This document shows positions 975 to 60,364 of a stretch of 64,000 nt of DNA, piece by piece (the first letter of the stretch is position 1; each line of letters opens with the position of its first letter). The stretch is from a virus (lineage: Duplodnaviria > Heunggongvirae > Uroviricota > Caudoviricetes): positions 7,469-71,468 of IMG/VR virus record IMGVR_UViG_3300046474_000237. One strand, 5' to 3'. Under the pieces are notes generated by a model. The model saw only the letters and a program-made list of their open reading frames with translations, had not been told where the DNA came from and made no database searches. Both the position numbers and the translations under genes were made by a program.

Positions 975-1560
975 CTAAAACTGGACTCAGATTTCGATGT
1001 GTCCAGTTTTGTCCAAAAGTGTCCAGTTTCTAGTTTTTGAAAATAACGTTTAGAATCAAAGACTTATAAGGCATGTGTCCAGTCTGTCCAATTTCTTAAA
1101 AAAAAACTGGACACTTTTTATTCTTTAGAATCAAGCACTTAAGTCACTTTGTCCAGTTTTTTCGCCTTTTTTCAAAAAACCATACCTCACTTTATAAAAG
1201 TAGAAATAAAAAAACAAAAAAGGAAAAACTTAGGGTTCACCCTAACAGTCCAGAAATATGGGGGTACTATATATATATTTATATTTGAACTTTTAAAAAA
1301 TATATTTATATATAAGAGAATGCGTTTTCTATTTTCCTTATTTTTTATTTGTAAAAGGAAGTGAGGTATGGTTTTCGAAAAAAGCGGCAAAAAACTGGAC
1401 ATTTGCTTCTAAGTCTTTGATTCTAAAAGAGAAAATCCTGTTTTAGAAACTGGACACAAATTGGACAGCCAGGACAAACGCTTGTAAGTCTATGATTTAA
1501 AAGAAGAAATTTGAAAACTAGAAACTGGACACTTTTGGACAAAACTGGACACTATCCAAA
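975..1560. repeat. iteron-rich ori-like repeat element, copy A
   Basis: About 12 copies of AACTGGACA / TGTCCAGTT in both orientations. Imperfect ~100-bp palindromic arms (ccatacctcactt at 1180, aagtgaggtatgg at 1359) flank an AT-rich core (1255-1320) containing tatatatatatttatatt. Near-identical copy at 59785-60346. Confidence 0.7.
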
Positions 1561-3101: not shown

Positions 3102-4355
3102 ATGGCGAAGATCTCAGATCTTCCACTGAACGAGTTGTATGAGAGAAAGATTACAACGTCTGTAGAAGTGGCAATCCATAGCAAGGAAGACTTTAGCAAG
3201 ATCAGTAAGACGTATTGCGACAAAGTCTGTAAGCTCAAATGTAAATCGTATGATGCTGTTCGCCTTGCTCAAAACGAAGTTGATATTCTGATTATCCAGG
3301 ATCACGCGGCACCCGCTGGGAAGTGGGATAGAGTAGAGGGTCAGCAAGAAAAGATCCAGCAGGATATCATTCACCATCTCTGTAAACAAGCAGGGTTTGG
3401 AACGTTGAAGTACCGATTGGTGAACTTGCTTAAATGTAGTCCGACAGAAGAAGACTTTCCAAAAGGGAAAGCACCAACTGCAACACGGCTAATGAAATGT
3501 AAACCTTATCTTTTAGCTGAGATAGATCGTTGTAAACCAAAGGTCATCATCAGTCTGGCAACAGTTGTGACTAAAGCGTTGGGTTATAAGAAACACAGCA
3601 ATACTGGTAATCGTGGTGAGTATGTTGATAACGTAGTTATCACAATCCATCCAAGAGCATTGACGATGATTCGTCAGAACGCCTCTGGAGCCTTCTGGGG
3701 ACAAGAGTTGTATGGTGTGATTCTCCGAGACTTCAAGAAGGCCGCAGCAATGGCTCGTGGTCATCTTAAACCGCCTACGTTAGCTGAAGCGATTGAGTTT
3801 TATAAACAGAACCGTATTCGCATTGCACGAAGCATTGAAGAAGTAAAAGAGTTCATGGCTATCATTGATGGTTTGCCAGCAAACTCAATCATCAGTCTAG
3901 ATACTGAAACGACCAGCTTAGACGGGCTGGCTGAAAATGCCAAACTGCTTTGTATTCAGTTCGGGTATCGAGATCCAATTGACAAAGAAGTTAAAGCATT
4001 GGTAGTTCCACTGTGGCATCGTGAGAACAAGATGTATAGTGGAGACGAAGCATGGGCTTTGGTTACTCCTTTCTTAGAAGGGCCAAGACCGAAGGTAGGG
4101 CACAACATTAAGTTCGATATCTTGTACATTTGGCACACTACCAAAGTACGGGTGAAAAATATGGCTTTTGATACTTTGCTTGTTCTTCATAGTCTTGATA
4201 GTGGTGCGCAGGGTACTTATAGTTTGAAAACTGCAGTCTGGGATATTGTTCCTTGGACTGGATTAGGTGGTTATGAAGACCTCCTACCTAAACTAACTAA
4301 GAATGCCGCCGAAGAAACTGAAGAAACTGAAGAAGATGAGGTAGAAAGTGATTAA
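3102..4355 (+). CDS. DNA polymerase I-type, N-terminal part: family-4 UDG-like domain plus 3'-5' exonuclease domain
   Basis: UDG4-like block (DILIIQDHAAPAGKWDRVEGQ...KCKPYLLAEIDRCKPKVIISLA). ExoI SLDTETTSLD and ExoII GHNIKFD motifs. Confidence 0.65.
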   Translation: MAKISDLPLNELYERKITTSVEVAIHSKEDFSKISKTYCDKVCKLKCKSYDAVRLAQNEVDILIIQDHAAPAGKWDRVEGQQEKIQQDIIHHLCKQAGFGTLKYRLVNLLKCSPTEEDFPKGKAPTATRLMKCKPYLLAEIDRCKPKVIISLATVVTKALGYKKHSNTGNRGEYVDNVVITIHPRALTMIRQNASGAFWGQELYGVILRDFKKAAAMARGHLKPPTLAEAIEFYKQNRIRIARSIEEVKEFMAIIDGLPANSIISLDTETTSLDGLAENAKLLCIQFGYRDPIDKEVKALVVPLWHRENKMYSGDEAWALVTPFLEGPRPKVGHNIKFDILYIWHTTKVRVKNMAFDTLLVLHSLDSGAQGTYSLKTAVWDIVPWTGLGGYEDLLPKLTKNAAEETEETEEDEVESD

Positions 4356-6057
4356 GCGTATTGACCCAAAGCCAAAGACCTCGACTGAGCAAGTACTAGA
4401 AGAGAAGGTCATTGCTGAAGTACGAGAAACACCTGTTGAGAAAAAGACTCGCAAGAAAGCAGAGCCTAAACCGAAGGTTGAAGAACCTGTAGCTGAGAAG
4501 AAGATTTATAGAACGTATGAAGATTATGATAGTGAAGATCTTTACGTCTATGCAGGTATTGATAACATTGTCACTTCAGAAGTCCTGACAGGTCTATGGT
4601 CTGATTTAGTAAAACCTCAAGAAGTGCAGATTGTAGGTCCCAATGGAGCGCCGATTAAGGCAAAGGCTCCGGCGATCATCGAATCAGTGATCAACACAGA
4701 AATGTTCTGTCACGAGTTCATTATCGATCTTGAAATCAATGGCATGGCATACGACGTTGATCGTAACCGCAAGATCTCTGAACAGATGGTTCGTGAAGTT
4801 GAAGAGTTTGATGAAAAAATCTTTACTGCAATCGGTAAAAGAATCAATCTAGACTCTGGTACAGAAGTTGGTAAGCTGCTTTATGAAGAACTTGGATTCG
4901 TAGCTCCGTTTAAGACAAAGTCTGGTGATGATGCAACTGACGGTGCGGCATTGCTCACACTGGCAGGGTTAAATCCTCTGGCTAACCAGTATGATGCTCC
5001 AGATCCTAAGCTGCAGTTCCTTGCAGATATGGCTAAGAGAAAGGATATTAATAGTGTTCACAATACTTTCATCAAGACGTATGTGGAGGACTTTGTTAAG
5101 CGTGATGGTCGGATTCATCCTAGCTATAACATGTTTGGCACTAGCAGCTTTCGGATCACTGGCGACAGTCCTAATCTTACGCAGCTTCCACGTCCTAAAC
5201 ATGGATACAATGTACGAGAGTGCTACATCGTTGATAGCGGCAATGTATTTATTGCCTTTGACTTTAGTTCTGCTGAAGTTAAGATTCTAGGCGCAATCTG
5301 TCGTGACAAGAATATGCTTAAGGCGATTGCCGAGGGCTTGGACTTTCACTCGTATTCTGCCAGTGCGATGATGGGCGTGTCATACGAAGAATATATTCAT
5401 ATTTTGGAAGATAAGAGTAATTCTCTCCAAAAAGAATACAAACGCATGCGACAAGTTGCAAAAGTTTTAACTTTTTCGATACTTTATGGTTCTTCAGTAG
5501 GTGGTATTGCAATGCAGTTGCAGTTGGACAAGTCTGAAGCTGAACGTCTGGTTAATATGTACTTCAATGCATACCCTGGAGTTAAGGATTATATTGAAGA
5601 GTCACACAATATGGCACGTTGGAACCAGAAAGTCTGGACACCATTTGGTCAGTACAAACATGAGTATGTAGCACAGGAAGTATTCAAGAAGACCGCAGCT
5701 TATAACGCATCACTGCGCAATGCTCAGAATGTACGGATTCAAAGTGCAACTTCGACTCTTGGTCTAGTTACATTTGCGCATCTTAACCAAGCAATTCAAA
5801 AGATCGACCCTCGTTGTAAAAGTATCTGTACTGTGTATGACTCAGTTGAATTCGAAGTACCGATTGAGCGTGCGGCAGAAGTAATCGAGACGGCATTCTA
5901 TTACATGAATGAATGGCCAGTAGAGAATTTCGATTGGCTGACTCTTCCGATTGGTGTTGAAGGTGAAATCGGTTTTAACTGGGGCCAGGTGGAACAAGTC
6001 CATCGTGGAGTAACTCAAGAAGCAATTAACGATATGTTATTTAAAAAGAAGGCGTAA
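4348..6057 (+). CDS. DNA polymerase I-type, polymerase domain (separate ORF with 8-bp overlap)
   Basis: Motif A-like DFSSAEVKIL, motif B KRMRQVAKVLTFSILYG, motif C TVYDSVEF. GTG start overlaps the stop of the upstream ORF. Confidence 0.7.
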   Translation: MIKRIDPKPKTSTEQVLEEKVIAEVRETPVEKKTRKKAEPKPKVEEPVAEKKIYRTYEDYDSEDLYVYAGIDNIVTSEVLTGLWSDLVKPQEVQIVGPNGAPIKAKAPAIIESVINTEMFCHEFIIDLEINGMAYDVDRNRKISEQMVREVEEFDEKIFTAIGKRINLDSGTEVGKLLYEELGFVAPFKTKSGDDATDGAALLTLAGLNPLANQYDAPDPKLQFLADMAKRKDINSVHNTFIKTYVEDFVKRDGRIHPSYNMFGTSSFRITGDSPNLTQLPRPKHGYNVRECYIVDSGNVFIAFDFSSAEVKILGAICRDKNMLKAIAEGLDFHSYSASAMMGVSYEEYIHILEDKSNSLQKEYKRMRQVAKVLTFSILYGSSVGGIAMQLQLDKSEAERLVNMYFNAYPGVKDYIEESHNMARWNQKVWTPFGQYKHEYVAQEVFKKTAAYNASLRNAQNVRIQSATSTLGLVTFAHLNQAIQKIDPRCKSICTVYDSVEFEVPIERAAEVIETAFYYMNEWPVENFDWLTLPIGVEGEIGFNWGQVEQVHRGVTQEAINDMLFKKKA

Positions 6058-6058
6058 T

Positions 6059-6706
6059 ATGTGGAAAGTCCGGAAAGACATAACCGGTCAAGTGTTTGGG
6101 AAGGTGACGGTTATTAAACCGGACTTCGAAAGCGGAGACAGTAGAATGTGGATTTGCAAATGTCAATGTGGCATTGATAAATCTATAAGTAGAGATGCCT
6201 TGAAATCAGGGGCAACTGTATCATGCGGATGTGTAGGTAGAACGTCAAATTTAAAACATGGGATGCATACCTCCAGGACTTACACTTCCTGGTCAAAAAT
6301 GAAAAGTAGATGTTTAAATCCTAACGACGATAACTACTATTTGTATGGGGGCAGAGGCATCTTTATATGTGAAAAATGGTTATCGTTCGAAGGTTTCTTA
6401 GCAGATATGGGCGAACGTCCGGAGGGTATGACTTTGGATAGGATAGACTCCGATAAAGAATACAGCCTTGAAAATTGTAGATGGTCTACTCCTTTAGAAC
6501 AGACGCTTAATAGAGGCGTTACGGTGAAGCTGACATATAAAGGCGAAACTGATTTGCTAGTGAACTGGTGTAATAGATTACACTTGGATAGAAAATTGAT
6601 GTATAGCAGGATAATAGAAAATAGATGGTCTGTAGAACGAGCTTTTGAAGAAGATAAACGTCTCAATCAACACGCTTTTGGCGAAAGAAATAATGGAAGT
6701 AGATAA
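6059..6706 (+). CDS. HNH-family (HNH_3/AP2-like) homing endonuclease-like protein
   Basis: Cys cluster CKCQCG...SCGC. YGGRGI...LDRIDSDKEYSLENCRWSTPLEQTLN resembles phage free-standing endonucleases. Sits directly after the polymerase gene. Confidence 0.5.
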   Translation: MWKVRKDITGQVFGKVTVIKPDFESGDSRMWICKCQCGIDKSISRDALKSGATVSCGCVGRTSNLKHGMHTSRTYTSWSKMKSRCLNPNDDNYYLYGGRGIFICEKWLSFEGFLADMGERPEGMTLDRIDSDKEYSLENCRWSTPLEQTLNRGVTVKLTYKGETDLLVNWCNRLHLDRKLMYSRIIENRWSVERAFEEDKRLNQHAFGERNNGSR

Positions 6707-9389: not shown

Positions 9390-10706
9390 ATGTCGGTTCT
9401 TACTCTGGGTTCTGTGAACCCTAAATTTTCATGGGTTATTCAGAAAAACCCTGCAACGATTCGTGAATCCAAAGATCCGTTCAAGAAATCCATCCGTCAA
9501 GGCTCAGTATACGGATGGTTTCTGAAAGGAGACAAAGCTTTTAGGTTGTGGTTCAAGGATCATGCTCTACACTGCTCGTTTGCTGAAGGTCGAGATCAGG
9601 AATTCGAATACTTGGATCGTACGCGGTATGCTTCACCATATCTCCCGATCAGTCTGATCACGAACTGTCTTGCAACGGCGTTCAAGGAATTGCAGGAAGA
9701 AGACACTGTTGCTCCTTTTAGCGCCTGGCTTGAGACAACGGTTGAGATTCGCAGTGCTAGCATGCTGAAACACATCACTCAACACTTCAATGGGACGTTC
9801 GGATTCGATGAAGGATATGGATTTCATTCCGAGCTGATTTCAGGTCATGCTTACAAAGTTCGCATTGTCGGACCTAGCGTGCATCACATGTTGAACGCAG
9901 CAATGGTTATTTTTCTCATGTTCTGTGTTTCGACAAAGGGCATATACATAAACCTCAAGGGTGATAACGTAGAGAAGTACATCAATGCAATTAACCGCAT
10001 CGATGCTCCGTACTTCATTCGATACCTCTTTAAACGGAATGTATTCTCGAATCGTGATACCTTTGCTAAAAACAAGTCGTTGCTCGATACGCCCCAAATT
10101 GATCTCTGGCACGGGGACACTCTCAGTCAACGTAAAGAGGCTATCTTCCCGCACTTGGGAGGAGGATCGGTCCTCATTGACATTGGGTGCGGCGAACTCA
10201 ATTATTCGATCCCGCTCAGTGCAAAGTATGAACAAGTCCTTGCGTATGAAGCGGATGAAGAAGTACGTGAGAATGCCGTGGGGAAAGCCACTGGTAGGGG
10301 AGTTGAGAATATTACCTTCAAAGAAGCAGCAACTCCTGAATCAGTTGACGATTGCAGCGCTCTATTCGATGGAGCTGATGTACTCATCACTGAAGTGCTT
10401 GAACACATGGAAAAGAGGGATGCACAACTTCTGATTCAAGCTGTTCTCAAGACTGACTTCAACAAGCTGGTTATCACCGTTCCTAATGCAGAATTCAACG
10501 TGAACTATCTGATGGAAGAAGGTCAATTCCGTCATGATGACCACAAGTGGGAACCTGGTTTCAAGGAATTTTCAAATTGGTTCACATCTATCGTCAGAGG
10601 TGAAAACCGTGTCGAGGGTATCGTTTGGACAACAGAAGGTATTGGCGACAAGGTTAACGGTGTTTCCACCTCAACGATGATTGTACTTACAAAAATCAAG
10701 GACTAA
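9390..10706 (+). CDS. hen1: Hen1-type RNA 3'-end 2'-O-methyltransferase (bacterial Hen1 of the Pnkp/Hen1 RNA repair system)
   Basis: SAM motif VLIDIGCGE. Metal-binding EVLEHM and the signature FRHDDHKWEPGFKEF (Hen1 FRHxDHxFE motif) in the C-terminal half. Length 438 aa as in bacterial Hen1. Directly upstream of pnkp. Confidence 0.7.
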   Translation: MSVLTLGSVNPKFSWVIQKNPATIRESKDPFKKSIRQGSVYGWFLKGDKAFRLWFKDHALHCSFAEGRDQEFEYLDRTRYASPYLPISLITNCLATAFKELQEEDTVAPFSAWLETTVEIRSASMLKHITQHFNGTFGFDEGYGFHSELISGHAYKVRIVGPSVHHMLNAAMVIFLMFCVSTKGIYINLKGDNVEKYINAINRIDAPYFIRYLFKRNVFSNRDTFAKNKSLLDTPQIDLWHGDTLSQRKEAIFPHLGGGSVLIDIGCGELNYSIPLSAKYEQVLAYEADEEVRENAVGKATGRGVENITFKEAATPESVDDCSALFDGADVLITEVLEHMEKRDAQLLIQAVLKTDFNKLVITVPNAEFNVNYLMEEGQFRHDDHKWEPGFKEFSNWFTSIVRGENRVEGIVWTTEGIGDKVNGVSTSTMIVLTKIKD

Positions 10707-10708
10707 GC

Positions 10709-13144
10709 ATGAAAATCGAAACTAAGCTTCATACCGTCTTTATTCTCGTCGGACCTTCGATGTGCGGTAAGAGCACGTTTGCAAGGCAGTTCCAACTTGC
10801 TCTCGATGAGCAGCTTCACAAGGTAGGTGTACCTGGCGTAGTTAAGGTAATAAGCTCCGATGCAGAGCGTCAGAGCCTCTATTCGCATGGGTCGCTACAT
10901 CGGTATTCCGGACTCATGAGCGAGGCGTCAGAGGCCGCATTCAAGGTTTTGATGGCGAAGTTTGAAGCTGCGATCATGTTCCCGATCAACAGCGAGTTTG
11001 TGATCATCGATACGACTGGTATGAATGACCAGTTTCGTAAGGAAGTAAAGAAGATTGCAGACAAGCACGAGTACCGTACTGAATTGGTTACTTTCGAGTA
11101 CACCAATAAGTCGTATGCATCTGAATCTACTCCTGCAGAAAAATTAGTTGTAGACAGTAGCGCAGCTCGTTTTAAACAGAAAGTTCTTCCTAATCTCGGT
11201 CGCAAAGAGCACGACGGTAACATTCGTATACGTGAACGTGATCCGAATCACTGGTTTGGTATCGAAGTTGAAATCGAAGACCTCGATATCTATGCAAAGA
11301 GCCATTTGTATCTCCCACTCCATGAAGAACTTGTAGTTATCGGAGATATACACGAGCACGTAACTGCATTTCAGACTCTTGACATGCAGCTTATGAAATC
11401 TCGTGATAGTAATGCTACCTCACCTAAGGAAGTACTGGTAGGAGATTATCTCGATAAAGGTGGAAACACTGAAGATACGATCATCGTCATCGAGAACTTC
11501 GTAGAGCAAGGCGGAATCATTGTTCATGGCAATCATGAGAGCTACGCTGTAAAGCGTATTAAAGGGGAGATTAAAAACCCCGATCTTGAACTGGAGGCAA
11601 AGTACATGTCTTCACTCAAGGTTCTCTTGAAAGATCCTGGCCTTGCAGCTAGAGTGGTAAATCTGTTCGATAATCACTCAGTTCCATTTCTGAAGGTAAT
11701 TGGAAGGGATGTACGGACCGTGTACGTAACTCACGCTCCTTGTGAGAACAAGTATCTCGGTAAGATGAGCAGCGATGCACTCAAGGCTCAGCGTAATCTT
11801 TTCGGACGTCGTGACAAAGACTACCGTGAAGCGTACAAGTTCATCTTCGAAGAGGCCGTGGGAAATCATCCCCTTCACGTATTTGGCCACGTAGCTCACA
11901 ACGCAAATAAACTGGAATTCCGTAACAAGATCTTCCTGGACACCGGCGCTGTGTATGGCGGTAAGCTTACGGCATTCGTGTACAAGAACAATCGGTATGG
12001 GTTCTACGAAGTCAAGACTGAATCGTTGGTTGAACATCAGAAAGAACTGCAGTCGAATCTGACTGTGCCTATCAATGCACCGGAACGTCCTTTTAGCATC
12101 TACGACTACAAGTTGTCTCCCGACGACATGAAGTTTCTAAATCGTACGCTGAAGAACGGCATTAAGTACATTTCTGGTACGATGGCCCCTGCTCCGTCAA
12201 CGGACACTCAGATTGAAAGTCTTGAAGCTGGGCTTGATTACTTTAATAGTAGAGGTGTTCAGTTCGTTGTTATCGAGCCTAAGTTTATGGGTTCTCGTTG
12301 TCAAGCATATCTGTACAAAAAGGATCCTTCGAAGTCGTTTCTTGTTTCTCGGAATGGTTTCAAGATTCGAATGACAGAACAGCTTCAGACGATGCTTGAC
12401 AATATTCCTAAACAACTGGATGATCTCGGGTTCGAATGGGAAGACGAGCTTATTCTTGATGGGGAACTTGAGCCCTGGACAACTCTCGGCAGGGGTCTGG
12501 TTGAAGAACAGTTCAAAGCGTATGAAGGCCTTGTACACTACGAACTTTCAACGCTGGCTCAAGACGAAGAGTTTAACAACTTGGACTTCAAGCAGAAAAT
12601 TGACGCTCAAGGTCTGTTGGAAAATGATCTTAAAACGTTCAGTGATACGCTTGATATCTACGCTCAAGATGGCGAACCGTTCTATAGCCCCTTTGCAATA
12701 CTGAAGTGTGATGGTAAAGTTACTAACACTCAAATCGAGCTTGCCCAGTCGTTCTTTAGTGTGAGCACTTACGATGCCCTGACAATCGATGTAACTGATC
12801 CAGAAGAAATTCAGCTGGCCAAAGAGTTCTTCGAGAAAGTCACTGTTGAGAAGAACATGGAGGGTGTCGTTATCAAACCATTGACTTTGAATGATGAAAT
12901 CGCACCGTACATGAAAGTCCGGAATGAAAATTACCTGACTCTCGTTTATGGTTACGACTACAAACGCCGCTATGAAGCCCTGTGCAAACAGAAGCGGATT
13001 GGTGGCAAACTCAAAGTCTCTATCCGGGAACATGAACTCGCAATGAAGATGCTTTCAGCGGATAATGGCCCTGCGGTAACTGAGCTTGTTGTGAAGATGA
13101 TTTCGCAGCTCAGTAAAGAGAAAGAGTTGGATCCGAGACTTTAA
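10709..13144 (+). CDS. pnkp: polynucleotide kinase-phosphatase with C-terminal ligase-like domain (bacterial Pnkp)
   Basis: P-loop GPSMCGKST. Calcineurin-type phosphoesterase motifs GDIHEH, GDYLDKGG, VHGNHE. C-terminal adenylyltransferase-like region around VVIEPKFMGSRC. 811 aa. Confidence 0.7.
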   Translation: MKIETKLHTVFILVGPSMCGKSTFARQFQLALDEQLHKVGVPGVVKVISSDAERQSLYSHGSLHRYSGLMSEASEAAFKVLMAKFEAAIMFPINSEFVIIDTTGMNDQFRKEVKKIADKHEYRTELVTFEYTNKSYASESTPAEKLVVDSSAARFKQKVLPNLGRKEHDGNIRIRERDPNHWFGIEVEIEDLDIYAKSHLYLPLHEELVVIGDIHEHVTAFQTLDMQLMKSRDSNATSPKEVLVGDYLDKGGNTEDTIIVIENFVEQGGIIVHGNHESYAVKRIKGEIKNPDLELEAKYMSSLKVLLKDPGLAARVVNLFDNHSVPFLKVIGRDVRTVYVTHAPCENKYLGKMSSDALKAQRNLFGRRDKDYREAYKFIFEEAVGNHPLHVFGHVAHNANKLEFRNKIFLDTGAVYGGKLTAFVYKNNRYGFYEVKTESLVEHQKELQSNLTVPINAPERPFSIYDYKLSPDDMKFLNRTLKNGIKYISGTMAPAPSTDTQIESLEAGLDYFNSRGVQFVVIEPKFMGSRCQAYLYKKDPSKSFLVSRNGFKIRMTEQLQTMLDNIPKQLDDLGFEWEDELILDGELEPWTTLGRGLVEEQFKAYEGLVHYELSTLAQDEEFNNLDFKQKIDAQGLLENDLKTFSDTLDIYAQDGEPFYSPFAILKCDGKVTNTQIELAQSFFSVSTYDALTIDVTDPEEIQLAKEFFEKVTVEKNMEGVVIKPLTLNDEIAPYMKVRNENYLTLVYGYDYKRRYEALCKQKRIGGKLKVSIREHELAMKMLSADNGPAVTELVVKMISQLSKEKELDPRL

Positions 13145-35336: not shown

Positions 35337-35725
35337 TGAACGAACAAATCAAACAAAAGTGGGTTGAAGCTCTTACGAGTGGAGAATATAAACAAGGTCG
35401 TAACTGTCTCAATGATGGTTTCGGAGGGTTCTGTTGCCTAGGGGTGTTGTCGGATCTTTATGCAAAAGAACAGAATTTTAAATGGGGAGACGATGGCCGT
35501 GGGAACTTCTGTCTAGACGGAGAAATTTATACGACTCCAAAGACAGTCCAAGCATGGTCTGGACTTAAAGTAGACGTCCCGTATCTTCCGTTTGCTTCAC
35601 GTGATAACGTTCCATATGGAGATTCTACACATATCATGGAGGGAGACTCAACTAGCATTGCTGCTTTGAATGATGAAGGCATTTCTTTCCCCCAAATCGC
35701 AGATCTTATCAAGACATTTCTATAA
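35336..35725 (+). CDS. tandem paralogue family protein 2
   Basis: MNEQIKQKWVEALTSGEYKQ...FCCLGVLSDLY...FPQIADLIKTFL. Confidence 0.6.
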   Translation: MNEQIKQKWVEALTSGEYKQGRNCLNDGFGGFCCLGVLSDLYAKEQNFKWGDDGRGNFCLDGEIYTTPKTVQAWSGLKVDVPYLPFASRDNVPYGDSTHIMEGDSTSIAALNDEGISFPQIADLIKTFL

Positions 35726-36108
35726 TGGCGATGAACTCGGAAGTAAAAGAAAAGTGGGTAGCTGCTCTTAAGAGTGGCGAGTACAAACAAACTCAATACG
35801 CTCTTCACGACAATGAAGGATTTTGTTGTCTAGGCGTTCTGTGTGACCTGTACTCGAAAGAGTTTTCGGAAGTAACATGGGAGTTTGACGACAAACTTAA
35901 AATGTACGTTTTTCAGCGTGAACGTACTGAGTTGCCAAGCTGTGTCTCGGTCTGGGCGGGAATCAATACTCTACACGGCAACGCAGCCGTCACTTTCCGA
36001 GACGAAGACTGTCAGAACGGAGAGCGTGCAACTAACCTGATGGACTTGAATGACGAGTGGTTAATGTCTTTCGACAAAATCGCTGACATAATCCAGGAAC
36101 AACTGTGA
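35725..36108 (+). CDS. tandem paralogue family protein 3
   Basis: EKWVAALKSGEYKQ...FCCLGVLCDLY...FDKIADIIQEQL. Confidence 0.6.
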   Translation: MAMNSEVKEKWVAALKSGEYKQTQYALHDNEGFCCLGVLCDLYSKEFSEVTWEFDDKLKMYVFQRERTELPSCVSVWAGINTLHGNAAVTFRDEDCQNGERATNLMDLNDEWLMSFDKIADIIQEQL

Positions 36109-36455
36109 ATGAGCGTGTAAAGAAACTGTGGGTTGAAGCACTTCGTAGCGGGGAGTATAAACAGACCCGTGGTAAACTTAAACACCAAACTGAAGACGGT
36201 GGATTAGAACATTGCTGTCTCGGGGTCTTGTGCGAAATTCACGACAAGGAAATGGGCTGCGAGCAATCGTTCAAGTCTATCGATGGATTTCCGCCTCCGC
36301 ACATTTTACAGTGGTCTGGATTCAACGCAGTAAATGCGAGATTTAAAGTTGAAAATACTGCGATAGGAACTGTGAGGGATAGCATTTCCTTTCTCAACGA
36401 CGCTCGTCTGTACACCTTCGCTCAAATAGCTGCTCTAATCGAGGCTCAAGCATGA
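36105..36455 (+). CDS. tandem paralogue family protein 4
   Basis: GTG start. KLWVEALRSGEYKQ...HCCLGVLCEIH...FAQIAALIEAQ. Confidence 0.55.
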   Translation: MNERVKKLWVEALRSGEYKQTRGKLKHQTEDGGLEHCCLGVLCEIHDKEMGCEQSFKSIDGFPPPHILQWSGFNAVNARFKVENTAIGTVRDSISFLNDARLYTFAQIAALIEAQA

Positions 36456-36808
36456 ATCAGGAAATTAAGGAAAAGTGGGTGAAGGCCCTTCGTAGCGGCG
36501 AGTACCCCCAAGGAACGCTTGCACTGAATGACTGTGGTAAATTTTGCTGTCTGGGTGTTCTTTGTGATATGTATTCCAAAGAGACCGGAGAGCCGTGGGT
36601 AGAGTCCGAGATAACGCAAGGTAAGAAACTCATTCACTCTGAGGAAGGGCTTCTACCTTATGAAGTAAGGTATTGGTCAGGTGCCAATACTTCGGATGGA
36701 CAACTCCCTTTTCTCGGTCGTCAAAAAGAAGAGCTTTGGCTGGCAAATCTTAACGATGGCGGAATGCCCTTCGGCCAAATCGCTGATCTTATCGAACACT
36801 GTCTGTAA
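36452..36808 (+). CDS. tandem paralogue family protein 5
   Basis: EKWVKALRSGEYPQ...FCCLGVLCDMY...FGQIADLIEHCL. Confidence 0.6.
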   Translation: MNQEIKEKWVKALRSGEYPQGTLALNDCGKFCCLGVLCDMYSKETGEPWVESEITQGKKLIHSEEGLLPYEVRYWSGANTSDGQLPFLGRQKEELWLANLNDGGMPFGQIADLIEHCL

Positions 36809-36825
36809 AACCTCAAGGAACTACA

Positions 36826-37197
36826 ATGAAAAAACGTATCAAAACCAAATGGCTCAAGGCTCTGCGTATCGGTGAGTATAACCAGACTACGGGTCAACTG
36901 AGGGATAGCACGGGGTTCTGTTGCCTCGGCGTTCTGTGTAATATCCACGCTCAAGAGAATCCTGAGATTGCTGCTAAAGAAACAGATCCTCACGAATATC
37001 TGCAGGCCTCAGGACAACTTCCTCCCGCAGTCGTTGCCTGGGCTGGCTTGGAGAAGGCCTCTGTAGAAGAAACTGCAGATGAAGAAACAGACATCAAGGT
37101 AACGTATCGCAACAAAGAAACGACTCTCGCAAGCCTTAACGACGGTGAAGGTCTGAGCTTCAAGAAGATCGCAAACGTGATCGAGCGTTGTCTGTAA
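36826..37197 (+). CDS. tandem paralogue family protein 6
   Basis: TKWLKALRIGEYNQ...FCCLGVLCNIH...FKKIANVIERCL. Confidence 0.6.
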   Translation: MKKRIKTKWLKALRIGEYNQTTGQLRDSTGFCCLGVLCNIHAQENPEIAAKETDPHEYLQASGQLPPAVVAWAGLEKASVEETADEETDIKVTYRNKETTLASLNDGEGLSFKKIANVIERCL

Positions 37198-58051: not shown

Positions 58052-58093
58052 TAGTGTTTTAAAACTTTGTTCCCAATCCAAAAGGAGCCTCAA

Positions 58094-59725
58094 ATGTCTT
58101 TCAATACCCTCGCAAAGAATACGAATACCCGAGTAGCAGCACGTACCACACCGCAGAACAAGCCTGCTGGCAATGCACCTGTAGCACAGGTTAAGAACAA
58201 CGCTGGTGGCTTTGTGTTTGAGATCTCTGGCATTCAAAAGCTGGATCGATTCCTCATCATCGGCACGAGCGGCGGTACGTTCTATGCTAACGAAAAGGAT
58301 CTCACGAAGCAGAACACTGACGAGATCGTGGCTCTGATCAAGGCTAACGGCAAGGTTGTGGTTGACCGTGTGGTTGAGATCAGCCAAGCCGGTCGTGCCA
58401 AGAACAATGACTATGCGCTTCTGGTCATGGCTCTGGTCTTCACCCACGGCGATGTTGCAACCAAGATGTATGCAAAGGATAAGTTGAACCTCGTGGCTCG
58501 TACTGGCACGCACTTCATGCACTTCGTTGCATTCTCAAATGGGATGCGAGGTTGGGGCCGTTCGCTTAAGAGCGTAGTTCAGAACTGGTATTCCTCGAAG
58601 GATACCGATAAGCTGGCATTCCAGATCGTGAAGTACAAGCAACGTGACGGCTGGTCCCACAAGGACATCATGCGTCTGGCTCACGTTAAGCCTGGTACTG
58701 ATCCGGTTCGTCAGAACCTGTACAAGTTCATCAACAAGGGTTCAGAGTCGCTGACGCAAGGTGACCTCGTGCCTCAACTTCTGATTGCTGCAGAGCAAGC
58801 CAAGACTGCAGATACGAAGACGTTGATCAAGCTGATCCAGGATTTCAAGCTCACGCACGAAATGATCCCGAATGAGCAAAAGAATGACCCGAAGGTTTGG
58901 GAAGCTCTCGTGCCTCACATGGGTCTGGGTGCGCTGGTTCGTAACCTGAACAAGCTCACGGCAGTTGGTCTGATCAAGCCTTTCTCGGAAACGAGCAAGA
59001 TTGTCAGTGTCAAGCTTCATGACGTAGAAGCAATTCGTCGTGAACGCCTACATCCTATGTCCATTATCGTAGCCCAAAAGGTTTACGCAAAGGGTCAGGG
59101 GGATAAGGGTTCGCTTGTATGGTCACCTGCACGCAACATCGTGTCGGATCTGGAAGATGCGTTCTATGTTTCGTTTGAAGCAGTAGAACCGTCCGGTAAG
59201 AACATTCTTCTTGCTCTGGACGTATCTGGTTCGATGAGCTGTGCAATCCCCGGAGCGCCACTGTTGAGCTGTGCTGAAGGCACTGCAATCATGGCAATGG
59301 TCACAGCTCGTACTGAGCCTTGGACCGAAATCCGTGGTTTCACGAGCGGTAGGAATGGCTTCAAGGATCTGGGTATCACGAAGAACGATACCTTGGCTAC
59401 AGCTTGCAGCAAGGTCCGCGACAATAACTTCGGTGGAACGAACTGTGCACTGCCGTTCGAGTATGCGCTTCAAAACAAGTGGGACGTGGATGCTGTCTGT
59501 GTTTACACGGATAATGAAACGTGGTCTGGTGGCCAACACGTGTTCCAAGCAGCACGCAAGTACCGTCAAGGTATGAACAAGCCTGAAGCTAAGCTTATCA
59601 CTGTTGGTATGGCAGTGAACAACTTCAGCATTGCTGACCCGACTGACCGCAATATGCTGGACGTGGTTGGTTTCGATACGGCAACTCCGAGGTTCATTTC
59701 GGAATTTGTGGCTGGCAACCTGTAA
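58094..59725 (+). CDS. rsr: Ro60/Rsr orthologue (TROVE domain plus vWA domain)
   Basis: LDRFLIIGTSGGTFYA and VARTGTHFMHFVAFSNGMRGWGRSLKSVVQNWY closely parallel the Ro60 TROVE motifs. C-terminal vWA MIDAS motif LALDVSGSMS. RBS aaaggag. The six-frame ORF starts at 58067. Confidence 0.8.
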   Translation: MSFNTLAKNTNTRVAARTTPQNKPAGNAPVAQVKNNAGGFVFEISGIQKLDRFLIIGTSGGTFYANEKDLTKQNTDEIVALIKANGKVVVDRVVEISQAGRAKNNDYALLVMALVFTHGDVATKMYAKDKLNLVARTGTHFMHFVAFSNGMRGWGRSLKSVVQNWYSSKDTDKLAFQIVKYKQRDGWSHKDIMRLAHVKPGTDPVRQNLYKFINKGSESLTQGDLVPQLLIAAEQAKTADTKTLIKLIQDFKLTHEMIPNEQKNDPKVWEALVPHMGLGALVRNLNKLTAVGLIKPFSETSKIVSVKLHDVEAIRRERLHPMSIIVAQKVYAKGQGDKGSLVWSPARNIVSDLEDAFYVSFEAVEPSGKNILLALDVSGSMSCAIPGAPLLSCAEGTAIMAMVTARTEPWTEIRGFTSGRNGFKDLGITKNDTLATACSKVRDNNFGGTNCALPFEYALQNKWDVDAVCVYTDNETWSGGQHVFQAARKYRQGMNKPEAKLITVGMAVNNFSIADPTDRNMLDVVGFDTATPRFISEFVAGNL

Positions 59726-59748
59726 GTTGTAAGGTTGTAGTAAGTAAG

Positions 59749-59775
59749 AGCCGGGTTTCGATCCGGCTTTTTTTA
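59749..59775 (+). terminator. rho-independent terminator
   Basis: agccggg tttcgat ccggct followed by ttttttt. Confidence 0.65.
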
Positions 59776-59784
59776 GCTTCTGGA

Positions 59785-60346
59785 GAAAAAACTGGACACA
59801 TGTCCAAAAAACTGGACAAGTCCGTTTTTTACTTTTCCTTTTAAATCAAGGACTTACAGAGGGTGTGTCCAGTGTGTCCAATTTCTCTAAAAAAAACTGG
59901 ACAGCTGAAACCATTGCTGCATAAGGCTTAGAGCCAGATTGTCCAGTTTTTTTGCCTTTTTTCCAAAAACCATACCTCACTTTCTTTTTGACTAAATAAA
60001 AAACAAAAAAGGAAAAACATAGGGTTCACCCTAACAGTCCAGGAATATGGGGGTACTATATATATATTTATATTTGAACTTTTAAAAAAATATATTTATA
60101 TATAAGAGAGTGTTTTCCTTTTTGGTAAGTTTTTTATTTCTAATAGAAAGTGAGGTATGGTTTTTGGAAAAACACGAAAAAAACTGGACAAAATCGCTGT
60201 GAGCCTTATAAACAAAGGCTTAGAGCCTGTCCAGTTTTTTATTTGGAAATTGGACAAACTGGACAGCAATGCTATAACTCATTGTTTTATATATGTTTTC
60301 ACGTTTCATAGAAAACGGACATTTCTGGACATGTGTCCAGTTTCTT
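59785..60346. repeat. iteron-rich ori-like repeat element, copy B
   Basis: About 13 AACTGGACA/TGTCCAGTT iterons. Palindromic arms ccatacctcactt (59971) and aagtgaggtatgg (60149). AT-rich core (60045-60110) nearly identical to copy A. Confidence 0.7.
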
Positions 60347-60354
60347 GTGATTCC

Positions 60355-60364
60355 TTGGTATAAG
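60355..60364 (+). promoter_or_regulatory. phage promoter motif TTGGTATAAG
   Basis: Conserved decamer immediately after repeat copy B. Confidence 0.55.

Follow-up and report, generated by a model that had tools for sequence, protein, structure and literature searches.

The window analysed here, a 64-kb stretch of DNA, comes from a large phage genome. Nearly all of the window's long ORFs, and every ORF with an assigned function, lie on the + strand. It carries 21 tRNA genes and encodes a split family-A DNA polymerase and a UDG-like/3'-5' exonuclease ORF, as well as ribonucleotide reductase, NAD-salvage enzymes, and an RNA-repair set of Thg1-like, Hen1, Pnkp, and Ro60 proteins. The nearest annotated polymerases are those of Salmonella phage Arash (47% identity) and of the Vibrio phages D69, D181, and D148 (45%). 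Arash virions contain the beta and beta' subunits of an RNA polymerase and a sigma factor (PMC10585845). The 9-mer TGGTATAAG occurs 16 times in the window against 0.27 expected occurrences, on the + strand every time, and is clearly the phage's standard promoter motif.

In this lineage, the gene order reads exonuclease, a 984-aa DnaG-type primase, two genes without assigned function, a non-coding element that we call copy A, Thg1, UDG-exonuclease, and PolA. A homologous element, copy B, lies 58.79 kb downstream in the same orientation, as the first-pass annotation had claimed. Both are quasi-palindromes of ~570 bp, and their features are as follows.

834-864, + strand: terminator-like hairpin and T run ending the upstream gene, just before copy A (read from the sequence)
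975-1560, no strand: copy A, the whole ~570-bp non-coding quasi-palindrome
1000-1028, - strand: outer-left triplet of copy A, TGTCCAGTT / TGTCCAAAA / TGTCCAGTT, with 10-bp spacing
1054-1066, + strand: IHF-consensus site AATCAAAGACTTA in the spacer between repeat clusters, copy A
1076-1113: middle-left cluster of copy A, a doublet at 1076-1084 and 1085-1093 (-) and an inverted site at 1105-1113 (+)
1129-1141, + strand: second IHF-consensus site of copy A, AATCAAGCACTTA
1150-1158, - strand: inner-left short repeat of copy A
1178-1192, + strand: left arm of copy A, AACCATACCTCACTT, invariant in 12 of 12 aligned copies and 179-180 bp from the right arm
1230-1245, - strand: conserved hairpin TTAGGGTGAACCCTAA of copy A, terminator-like in that a T run follows it on the minus strand
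1260-1318, + strand: GGGGG-TAC, then the ~94% A+T centre of copy A, a candidate unwinding element
within 1260-1318: ATATATTTATAT twice (1273, 1300), with the promoter-like box TATAAGAG as the end of the centre, copy A
1359-1373, + strand: right arm of copy A, AAGTGAGGTATGGTT, an inverted copy of the left arm
1393-1401, + strand: inner-right short repeat of copy A
1410-1422, - strand: third IHF-consensus site of copy A, the mirror image of 1129-1141
1448-1476, + strand: middle-right cluster of copy A, AACTGGACA, AATTGGACA, and the degenerate CCAGGACA
1523-1551, + strand: outer-right triplet of copy A, 10-bp spacing, mirroring 1000-1028
1582-1591, + strand: outward-facing TTGGTATAAG promoter motif after copy A
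59746-59779, + strand: terminator-like hairpin and T run after the Ro60-like gene, just before copy B
59780-60345, no strand: copy B, the whole element, oriented as copy A
59790-59818, no strand: outer-left sites of copy B, TGGACA-CA-TGTCCA and one further site
59844-59856, + strand: IHF-consensus site AATCAAGGACTTA, copy B
59866-59948: left sites of copy B, the middle doublet at 59866 and 59875 (-), an inverted site at 59895-59903 (+), and the inner site at 59940-59948 (-)
59968-59982, + strand: left arm of copy B, AACCATACCTCACTT
60049-60106, + strand: GGGGG and A+T centre of copy B, at both 60 bp and 100 bp the window's least stable duplex
60148-60162, + strand: right arm of copy B, AAGTGAGGTATGGTT
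60182-60342: right-half sites of copy B at 60182 (+), 60228 (-), 60248 and 60257 (+), 60323 (+), and 60334 (-)
60355-60364, + strand: outward-facing TTGGTATAAG promoter motif before the dCMP-deaminase-like gene, copy B

Exact AACTGGACA is found 16 times in the 64-kb window (0.64 expected), and all 16 sites fall inside the elements, eight within 1000-1551 and eight within 59790-60342. The 6-mer core TGGACA occurs at 13 sites per element, the two elements together holding 26 of the 55 sites in the window; the first-pass count of about 12 copies of a 9-mer is therefore correct if degenerate copies are included. The 13 repeats of each element occupy mirror-symmetric positions and are helically phased, with 10-bp spacing in the outer triplets and 9 bp in the doublets, which gives each element the three or more phased sites expected of an iteron-type origin. 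The inverted arms proposed in the same annotation are indeed there: in copy A, 1150-1226 matches 1325-1401 (77 nt, 71%) and the outer arms match at 999-1070 and 1481-1552 (72 nt, 83%), and copy B has equivalents. Within copy A, the perfect 15-mers AACCATACCTCACTT (1178-1192) and AAGTGAGGTATGGTT (1359-1373) stand on either side of the AT core. Between the two copies, identity reaches 98% over a 92-nt core and 80-85% in the flanks, but only 34% in the spacers. The earlier placement of each copy between a terminator and a promoter also holds, in that a terminator-like hairpin precedes each copy (834-857 and 59746-59771) and a TTGGTATAAG motif follows it (1582-1591 and 60355-60364).

Between the arms, the order is an A-rich tract, a short hairpin, a GGGGG run, and a stretch of ~50 bp that is ~94% A+T; in copy A this is the AT-rich core with a TA repeat that had been described at first pass, and it spans 1268-1316. 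In a nearest-neighbour profile of duplex stability calculated over 60-bp and 100-bp windows, the two cores are the two least stable duplexes in the 64 kb at both window sizes; they score -57.1 and -57.9 kcal/mol, whereas the mean is -80.8 (sd 4.9) and the next-lowest window is at -62.9. An exceptionally unstable A+T region is expected of iteron origins, and the cores rank first and second in 64 kb here and first to fifth in the 180.8 kb of Arash, where the five 60-bp windows of lowest stability coincide exactly with the five elements (described below). The two elements also contain four perfect matches to the IHF consensus WATCAANNNNTTR, where ~0.07 would be expected. The spacers come in two interchangeable types, an AT type that carries the perfect IHF consensus and another that has a GC-rich dyad at the same position. 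We would like to note that IHF-consensus sites are present in some spacers and copies only and are absent from the Arash elements.

Several other kinds of feature were sought in the elements. No conserved ORF was found within copy A or copy B, and sigma-70 promoter scans of the elements gave no excess over shuffled controls. In Rfam, only tRNAs passed the gathering threshold, and a scan by E-value returned weak, palindrome-caused matches with nothing credible among them. A structured RNA gene was accordingly rejected as a candidate, as the core hairpin also has no compensatory changes. Neither DnaA boxes nor GATC clusters were found. GC and AT skew across the elements of the window, Arash, and D69 show no origin-type switch. 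GC skew in Arash does show a small, consistent left-to-right drop across all five elements at a 3-5 kb scale, opposite to the bacterial convention, and copy B has the opposite sign to the Arash elements.

Relatives of the elements were located by exact-pattern scans of IMG/VR. A degenerate version of the core pattern retrieved mainly an unrelated family of small phages without an INPHARED match, and 16-mer matches at three loci (L009, L011, and L017) were judged to be chance. The related IMG/VR contigs that contain the element have flanking genes 70-88% identical to those of the window. One of them, a contig of 181,435 bp, holds an orthologue each of copy A (L005) and copy B (L002), the latter adjoining a Ro60-like gene 58.9 kb from the A orthologue, and also an inverted third copy, copy C (L004). 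The gaps between copies on this contig are 46.3, 58.9, and 76.3 kb. Copy C stands at the head of a long one-directional gene arm, between divergent promoters, and PHROGs searches on the genes around it identified only the large terminase, about 10 kb away. In more distant relatives, with flanks ~70% identical, the same three positions are occupied, with gaps of about 50, 57-59, and 75 kb. DNA searches with the element and the first 12 kb against the INPHARED phages gave no match, as did a search with the element against PLSDB plasmids, and we found no description of the elements in the searchable literature, the Arash paper included.

Twelve element copies from at least five phages were aligned (alignment A2). 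All of them have the perfect 15-bp inverted arms, 179-180 bp apart, and the order of features between the arms given above, with an A+T stretch that carries ATATATTTATAT twice and has TATAAGAG at its end. Relative to the arm, the repeats sit at base-pair identical positions and in identical orientations in all 12 copies, at -105<, -96<, -73>, and -31< on the left and +214>, +257<, +280>, and +289> on the right (arrowheads give orientation), with outer triplets of 10-bp spacing near -180 to -160 and +345 to +365. Identity among paralogues and orthologues alike is 80-100% in the repeats, arms, and AT centre and 34-40% in the spacers, even where the orthologues come from phages with only ~70% identity in their flanking genes. 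Compensatory double changes were seen in 22 of 94 palindrome pairs, so that the left and right halves co-vary, and the core hairpin displays no such covariation. Judged by sequence comparison, this is the pattern that a precisely built nucleoprotein complex would leave, and not that of an RNA or a coding sequence.

This comparison also bears on the possibility that the two copies are an assembly artefact, i.e., a collapsed or misjoined terminal repeat, which the first-pass annotation had named as the result that would overturn it. Contigs of the distant relatives do start or stop inside the element, as such an artefact might produce, but they do so at varying internal positions, which indicates assembly breaks induced by a repeat and not physical ends. 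Copies A and B differ from each other throughout their spacers (34% identical), both have a separate orthologue, flanked by the same genes, in independent assemblies, and the finished genome of the cultured phage Arash holds five copies. We therefore exclude an artefact and regard its probability as negligible.

Arash and D69 were examined over their whole genomes. Arash has five copies of ~210-240 bp at 26.6, 66.4, 100.1, 138.5, and 173.3 kb, all in a single orientation. Their core is related to that of the window, with inverted arms containing GAGGTnnnGGTT, then GGGGT-TATATATA, an A+T stretch, and TATATAAG, and about 130 bp of it are identical across all five copies; the short repeat is GTTACAA in place of TGGACA (array form GGTTACAA). 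A DNA search with the Arash element matched only Arash itself. D69 has three quasi-palindromes of ~340-400 bp at 67.5, 125.2, and 185.4 kb, in which the repeats AATGTAGCA/AATGTTGCA and AGTTACA are arranged mirror-symmetrically; 10 of the 11 AATGTAGCA sites in the D69 genome lie inside the elements. The repeat thus differs by lineage (TGGACA, GTTACAA, or ATGTAGCA), and copy orientations are mixed in D69 and in the window's clade. The elements are kept across a poorly known clade of ~180-kb phages with a virion RNA polymerase.

The copies are spread quite evenly. In Arash, the gaps are 39.7, 33.8, 38.3, 34.8, and 34.2 kb, and a minimum gap this large has P = 2.8e-5 (4.6e-4 with internal gaps only). 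The D69 gaps are 57.7, 60.2, and 68.8 kb (P = 0.005), and the gaps of 46/59/76 kb in the window's clade (P = 0.055) are of marginal significance alone, the layout of copies in that clade being kept among phages with ~70% identity. In all three lineages (the window's clade, D69, and Arash), one copy lies between the primase and the UDG-exonuclease/polymerase genes, and in each lineage a copy is found 1-10 kb upstream of the gene for the large terminase. The other neighbouring genes are not conserved between lineages.

Three to five quite evenly spaced copies per ~180-kb genome would most likely be multiple replication origins. On the sequence comparisons above, we propose that each element may be one of several homologous, bidirectional, iteron-type origins of a ~180-kb lytic phage. 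The best reading of the evidence, as we see it, takes together the symmetric phased arrays around the genome's least stable DNA, the bending sites between the arrays, the insulation from read-through, the lineage-specific repeats on a conserved scaffold, the copy in the replication module, and the even spread along the genome. We nevertheless give this proposal only about an even chance, because we infer every step from the binding sites to initiation (protein binding, melting, priming, and origin function itself) and because several findings run contrary to it. The core shows far more conservation than an AT-rich unwinding element would require, which counts against an origin, and the promoter-like TATAAG box and the clade's minus-strand hairpin could point to a small transcript, instead or additionally. 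These three features together make a short origin-associated transcript or primer possible.

If the elements are origins, initiation might proceed along the following lines. A putative phage-encoded DNA-binding protein would occupy the TGGACA repeats, which are fixed, helically phased, and mirror-symmetric about the core. Host IHF, or the GC-rich dyads that replace its sites in some copies, would bend the DNA between the clusters and wrap the two halves, and the invariant 15-bp inverted arms may be the target of a further, more conserved factor. Stress built up in this way, aided by negative supercoiling behind the outward-firing flanking promoters, would melt the ~50-bp A+T centre, and the phage primase/helicase and split family-A polymerase would then start forks both ways, with priming possibly from the conserved G run that borders the melted region. 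The genome would then be split into replicons of similar size by the three copies of the window's clade, and by the three or five of its relatives.

A linked initiator was sought, and no neighbouring gene proved to be conserved across the window's clade, Arash, and D69. The protein encoded just upstream of copy A, P0001, found no support as the iteron binder: its 18 homologues are all within the clade, tblastn against Arash and D69 retrieved no homologue, and its C-terminal domain, despite a good structure model, has no meaningful fold match in the PDB and no match to a DNA-binding fold. Pfam searches with the large primases and helicases of Arash and D69 returned Toprim and SNF2 domains and no recognizable origin-binding domain. 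The iteron-dependent origin suggested at first pass stands in part: the arrays, IHF sites, unstable centre, conservation, copy in the replication module, and spacing of three to five copies in three lineages all fit it indirectly, while no initiator was found and the GC skew is unsupportive. Its other suggestion, a protein-primed origin, fares worse. Protein-primed origins of the phi29, PRD1, and adenovirus type lie at the ends of linear genomes, with inverted terminal repeats, a terminal protein, and a family-B polymerase. The elements here are internal and multi-copy, so the protein-primed reading is unsupported, and the polymerase belongs to family A.

Other functions have to be weighed against an origin. 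Each element could be a transcription hub or small-RNA locus, with the core as a promoter or short unit for the phage RNA polymerase and the repeats as operators that also control the outward promoters. We consider this unlikely, and it is kept alive by the RNA polymerase beta/beta' subunits and sigma factor of Arash virions (PMC10585845). Features of the DNA that suit it are the end of the core, TATAAGAG, which also forms the 3' part of the abundant TGGTATAAGAG promoter motif; the CTTATATAAGG of the Arash core; the leftward hairpin and T run inside the core in the window's clade, and the hairpin and TTTCTTT right of the core in Arash; the outward promoters that abut the outermost repeats in every copy; and the extreme identity of the core, which suits sequence-specific recognition. 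However, there are three to five copies per genome as against 16 ordinary promoters in 64 kb, and the orientation of the core relative to the neighbouring genes varies, with copy C inverted and the Arash copies keeping one orientation across plus- and minus-strand gene blocks. Furthermore, the neighbouring genes differ by lineage, the terminator-like features are not kept between lineages, the hairpin has neither covariation nor an Rfam match, and local regulation does not predict even spacing along a genome. That spacing, seen in three lineages, would suit genome-organising sites, which would serve as evenly spaced sites of anchoring, condensation, or centromere-like partition, bound by a phage protein and IHF, and would act on the whole chromosome without starting replication. 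Symmetric repeat arrays with IHF sites do resemble plasmid centromeres such as R1 parC, and the positions of the copies are not tied to particular neighbouring genes. We nonetheless hold this to be improbable: such sites have no need for the genome's least stable DNA at their centre, one copy is always within the replication module, and the surveyed parts of the genomes revealed no ParA-, ParB-, or SMC-like gene.

A selfish origin of the elements, as MITE-like palindromes spread in phage genomes without function for the phage, would explain why they are short, AT-rich, non-coding sequences with perfect 15-bp inverted repeats in multiple copies and either orientation. The copy positions do differ among distant lineages, and homing endonuclease genes adjoin two of the D69 copies. 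Even so, the elements occupy orthologous positions even where the flanking genes of the phages retain only ~70% identity, discrete motifs are fixed in position while the DNA between them diverges, the repeat sequence changes by lineage while the architecture is kept, the copies are spaced far more regularly than expected of insertion at random, and no target-site duplication is evident at the element boundaries, all of which makes this very improbable. We give slightly less credence still to packaging (pac/cos) sites, also proposed at first pass, in which the repeats would be sites for the small terminase, IHF would bend the DNA, and the AT centre would be the cut site. Repeats and an IHF site around a central cut region are the layout of P1 pac and lambda cosB, and the copy 1-10 kb upstream of the large terminase gene points the same way, but with many evenly spaced copies one near that gene is expected by chance. 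Three to five dispersed copies per genome are not a single site, their orientations are mixed in the window's clade and D69, and the contigs break at varied positions in the element, as for a repeat and not a fixed end.

Compared with known systems, the elements are not members of any described origin family, and by analogy their function would resemble that of IHF-using iteron origins. The iteron theta origins of pSC101, R6K gamma, and lambda likewise have phased arrays of sites beside an A+T-rich unwinding region, with IHF sites between. Their repeats are direct and on one side, whereas those of the elements are mirror-symmetric on both sides, and the elements have no adjacent or overlapping initiator gene, no DnaA boxes, and three to five homologous copies per genome. 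In symmetry and copy number, the elements are closer to two other systems: archaeal origins that carry inverted ORB sites, and HSV-1 oriS/oriL, the three palindromic origins of a large dsDNA virus, with an A+T-rich centre and inverted UL9 sites that lie between transcription units. The HSV-1 palindromes are 45-144 bp long with 2-3 sites, and the origins are not evenly spaced, as against ~570 bp with about 13 sites and IHF sites here; the viruses and their proteins are unrelated.

Several origins per chromosome are also found in the archaeon Sulfolobus (oriC1-3), where sites of opposite polarity (inverted ORB) flank the unwinding element and would load helicases both ways. Those origins are mutually non-homologous and each lies beside an Orc1/Cdc6-type or WhiP initiator gene, whereas the elements are paralogous and have no linked initiator gene. 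T4 is likewise a large lytic phage of ~170 kb with several origins (oriA, oriE, oriF, and oriG), some of which consist of a promoter and a downstream unwinding element, while oriE has iterons. Unlike the elements, the T4 origins are unrelated to one another in sequence and architecture, are no palindromes, and lie at uneven intervals. P1 pac and lambda cosB share with the elements short-repeat clusters on both sides of a central region and an IHF site, but they occur once per genome and mark physical DNA ends, whereas the elements are present in three to five copies with no ends evident. In the satellite phage P4, ori and crr are likewise two separated cis elements with the same short repeats, both bound by one phage protein, the primase-helicase alpha; in contrast to the elements, they lie 4.5 kb from each other and do not form palindromes about an AT core.

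To our knowledge, replication origins are undescribed for almost all large lytic phages. A broader proposal, which we hold tentatively, is that a ~180-kb chromosome may be replicated as three to five near-equal replicons from paralogous, sequence-homogenized palindromic origins whose spacing is selected and whose repeat specificity co-evolves with a putative phage initiator, or that the same sites serve to organize the genome. We know of no bacteriophage for which an archaeal- or eukaryote-style multi-origin layout has been described, so this layout would, if true, be new to bacteriophages, and the genome-organising alternative would likewise be without phage precedent. Whatever their function, the elements account for the fixed break points in assemblies of these phages and for the mis-annotation of small "hypothetical" ORFs across them. 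If they are origins, they would point to a putative initiator with a swappable DNA specificity, and a conserved family of homologous, evenly spaced origins would make origin usage and spacing directly testable, which is practical because Salmonella phage Arash is cultured.

Downstream of copy A, the repeated quasi-palindromic element at 975-1560, the region 1582-1723 carries a TTGGTATAAG promoter followed by a strong terminator-like hairpin with a T run, and together these could define a leader of about 110 nt, an attenuator or a small RNA. The features at its downstream end are as follows.

About 1677-1705: terminator-like hairpin and T run, directly 5' of the likely Thg1 start codon
1724: likely Thg1 start codon

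The repeated elements also leave their mark on assemblies and annotations of related phages. Two metagenomic IMG/VR contigs from such phages, 3300046507_000526 and 3300046524_000229 (loci L008, L010, L012 and L013), both start and finish within element cores. The repeat restricts genome assembly, so that these contigs reach about 107 and 134 kb as against about 181 kb. In the distant relatives, small ORFs annotated as hypothetical proteins overlap the repeated non-coding elements, namely gp115c (66238-66405) and gp171c (100204-100371) in Salmonella phage Arash (OQ632216) and ORFs 0094, 0230-0232 and 0322-0323 in Vibrio phage D69 (OZ195729); these are probably not genes. Across all five Arash elements (L018-L021), which lie around 26.6, 66.4, 100.1, 138.5 and 173.3 kb, GC skew falls from left to right on a scale of 3-5 kb, with a mean change of -0.058 (about 0.3% of random placements); origins usually show the reverse sign.

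In small phage contigs of an unrelated IMG/VR family (L023-L045), for which no match was found in INPHARED, GGGGTATTATATATAC...TATATATAAG lies beside TGTTGC repeats as well as a divergent gene start, and this may be another origin-like region. One example locus is listed here.

L023, 6480-6527: small-phage family locus

Several observations concern the gene content of the window. An RNA-repair gene set is distributed across 1724-2554, 9390-13144 and 58067-59725 and includes a Thg1-like tRNA-His guanylyltransferase, Hen1 and Pnkp, and a Ro60/TROVE-vWA protein, beside whose gene no Y-RNA-like Rfam match was detected. The family-A polymerase (3102-6706) is split, with a UDG-like domain fused to a 3'-5' exonuclease in one ORF and the polymerase on a separate ORF, and an HNH endonuclease gene follows directly. 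At 34785-37197, corresponding to families D1, D2, D3 and D8 of the repeat search of the window, five or six paralogous genes of about 120 aa each form a tandem array and have in common a CCLGVL motif as well as their conserved N-terminus, MNEQIKQKW..SGEY. Lastly, among 21 phage tRNAs, the top-scoring Rfam tRNA match (69.3 bits) is an amber suppressor with anticodon CTA (27076-27151), labeled 'Pyl' by ARAGORN, and it may indicate TAG read-through or stop-codon recoding.
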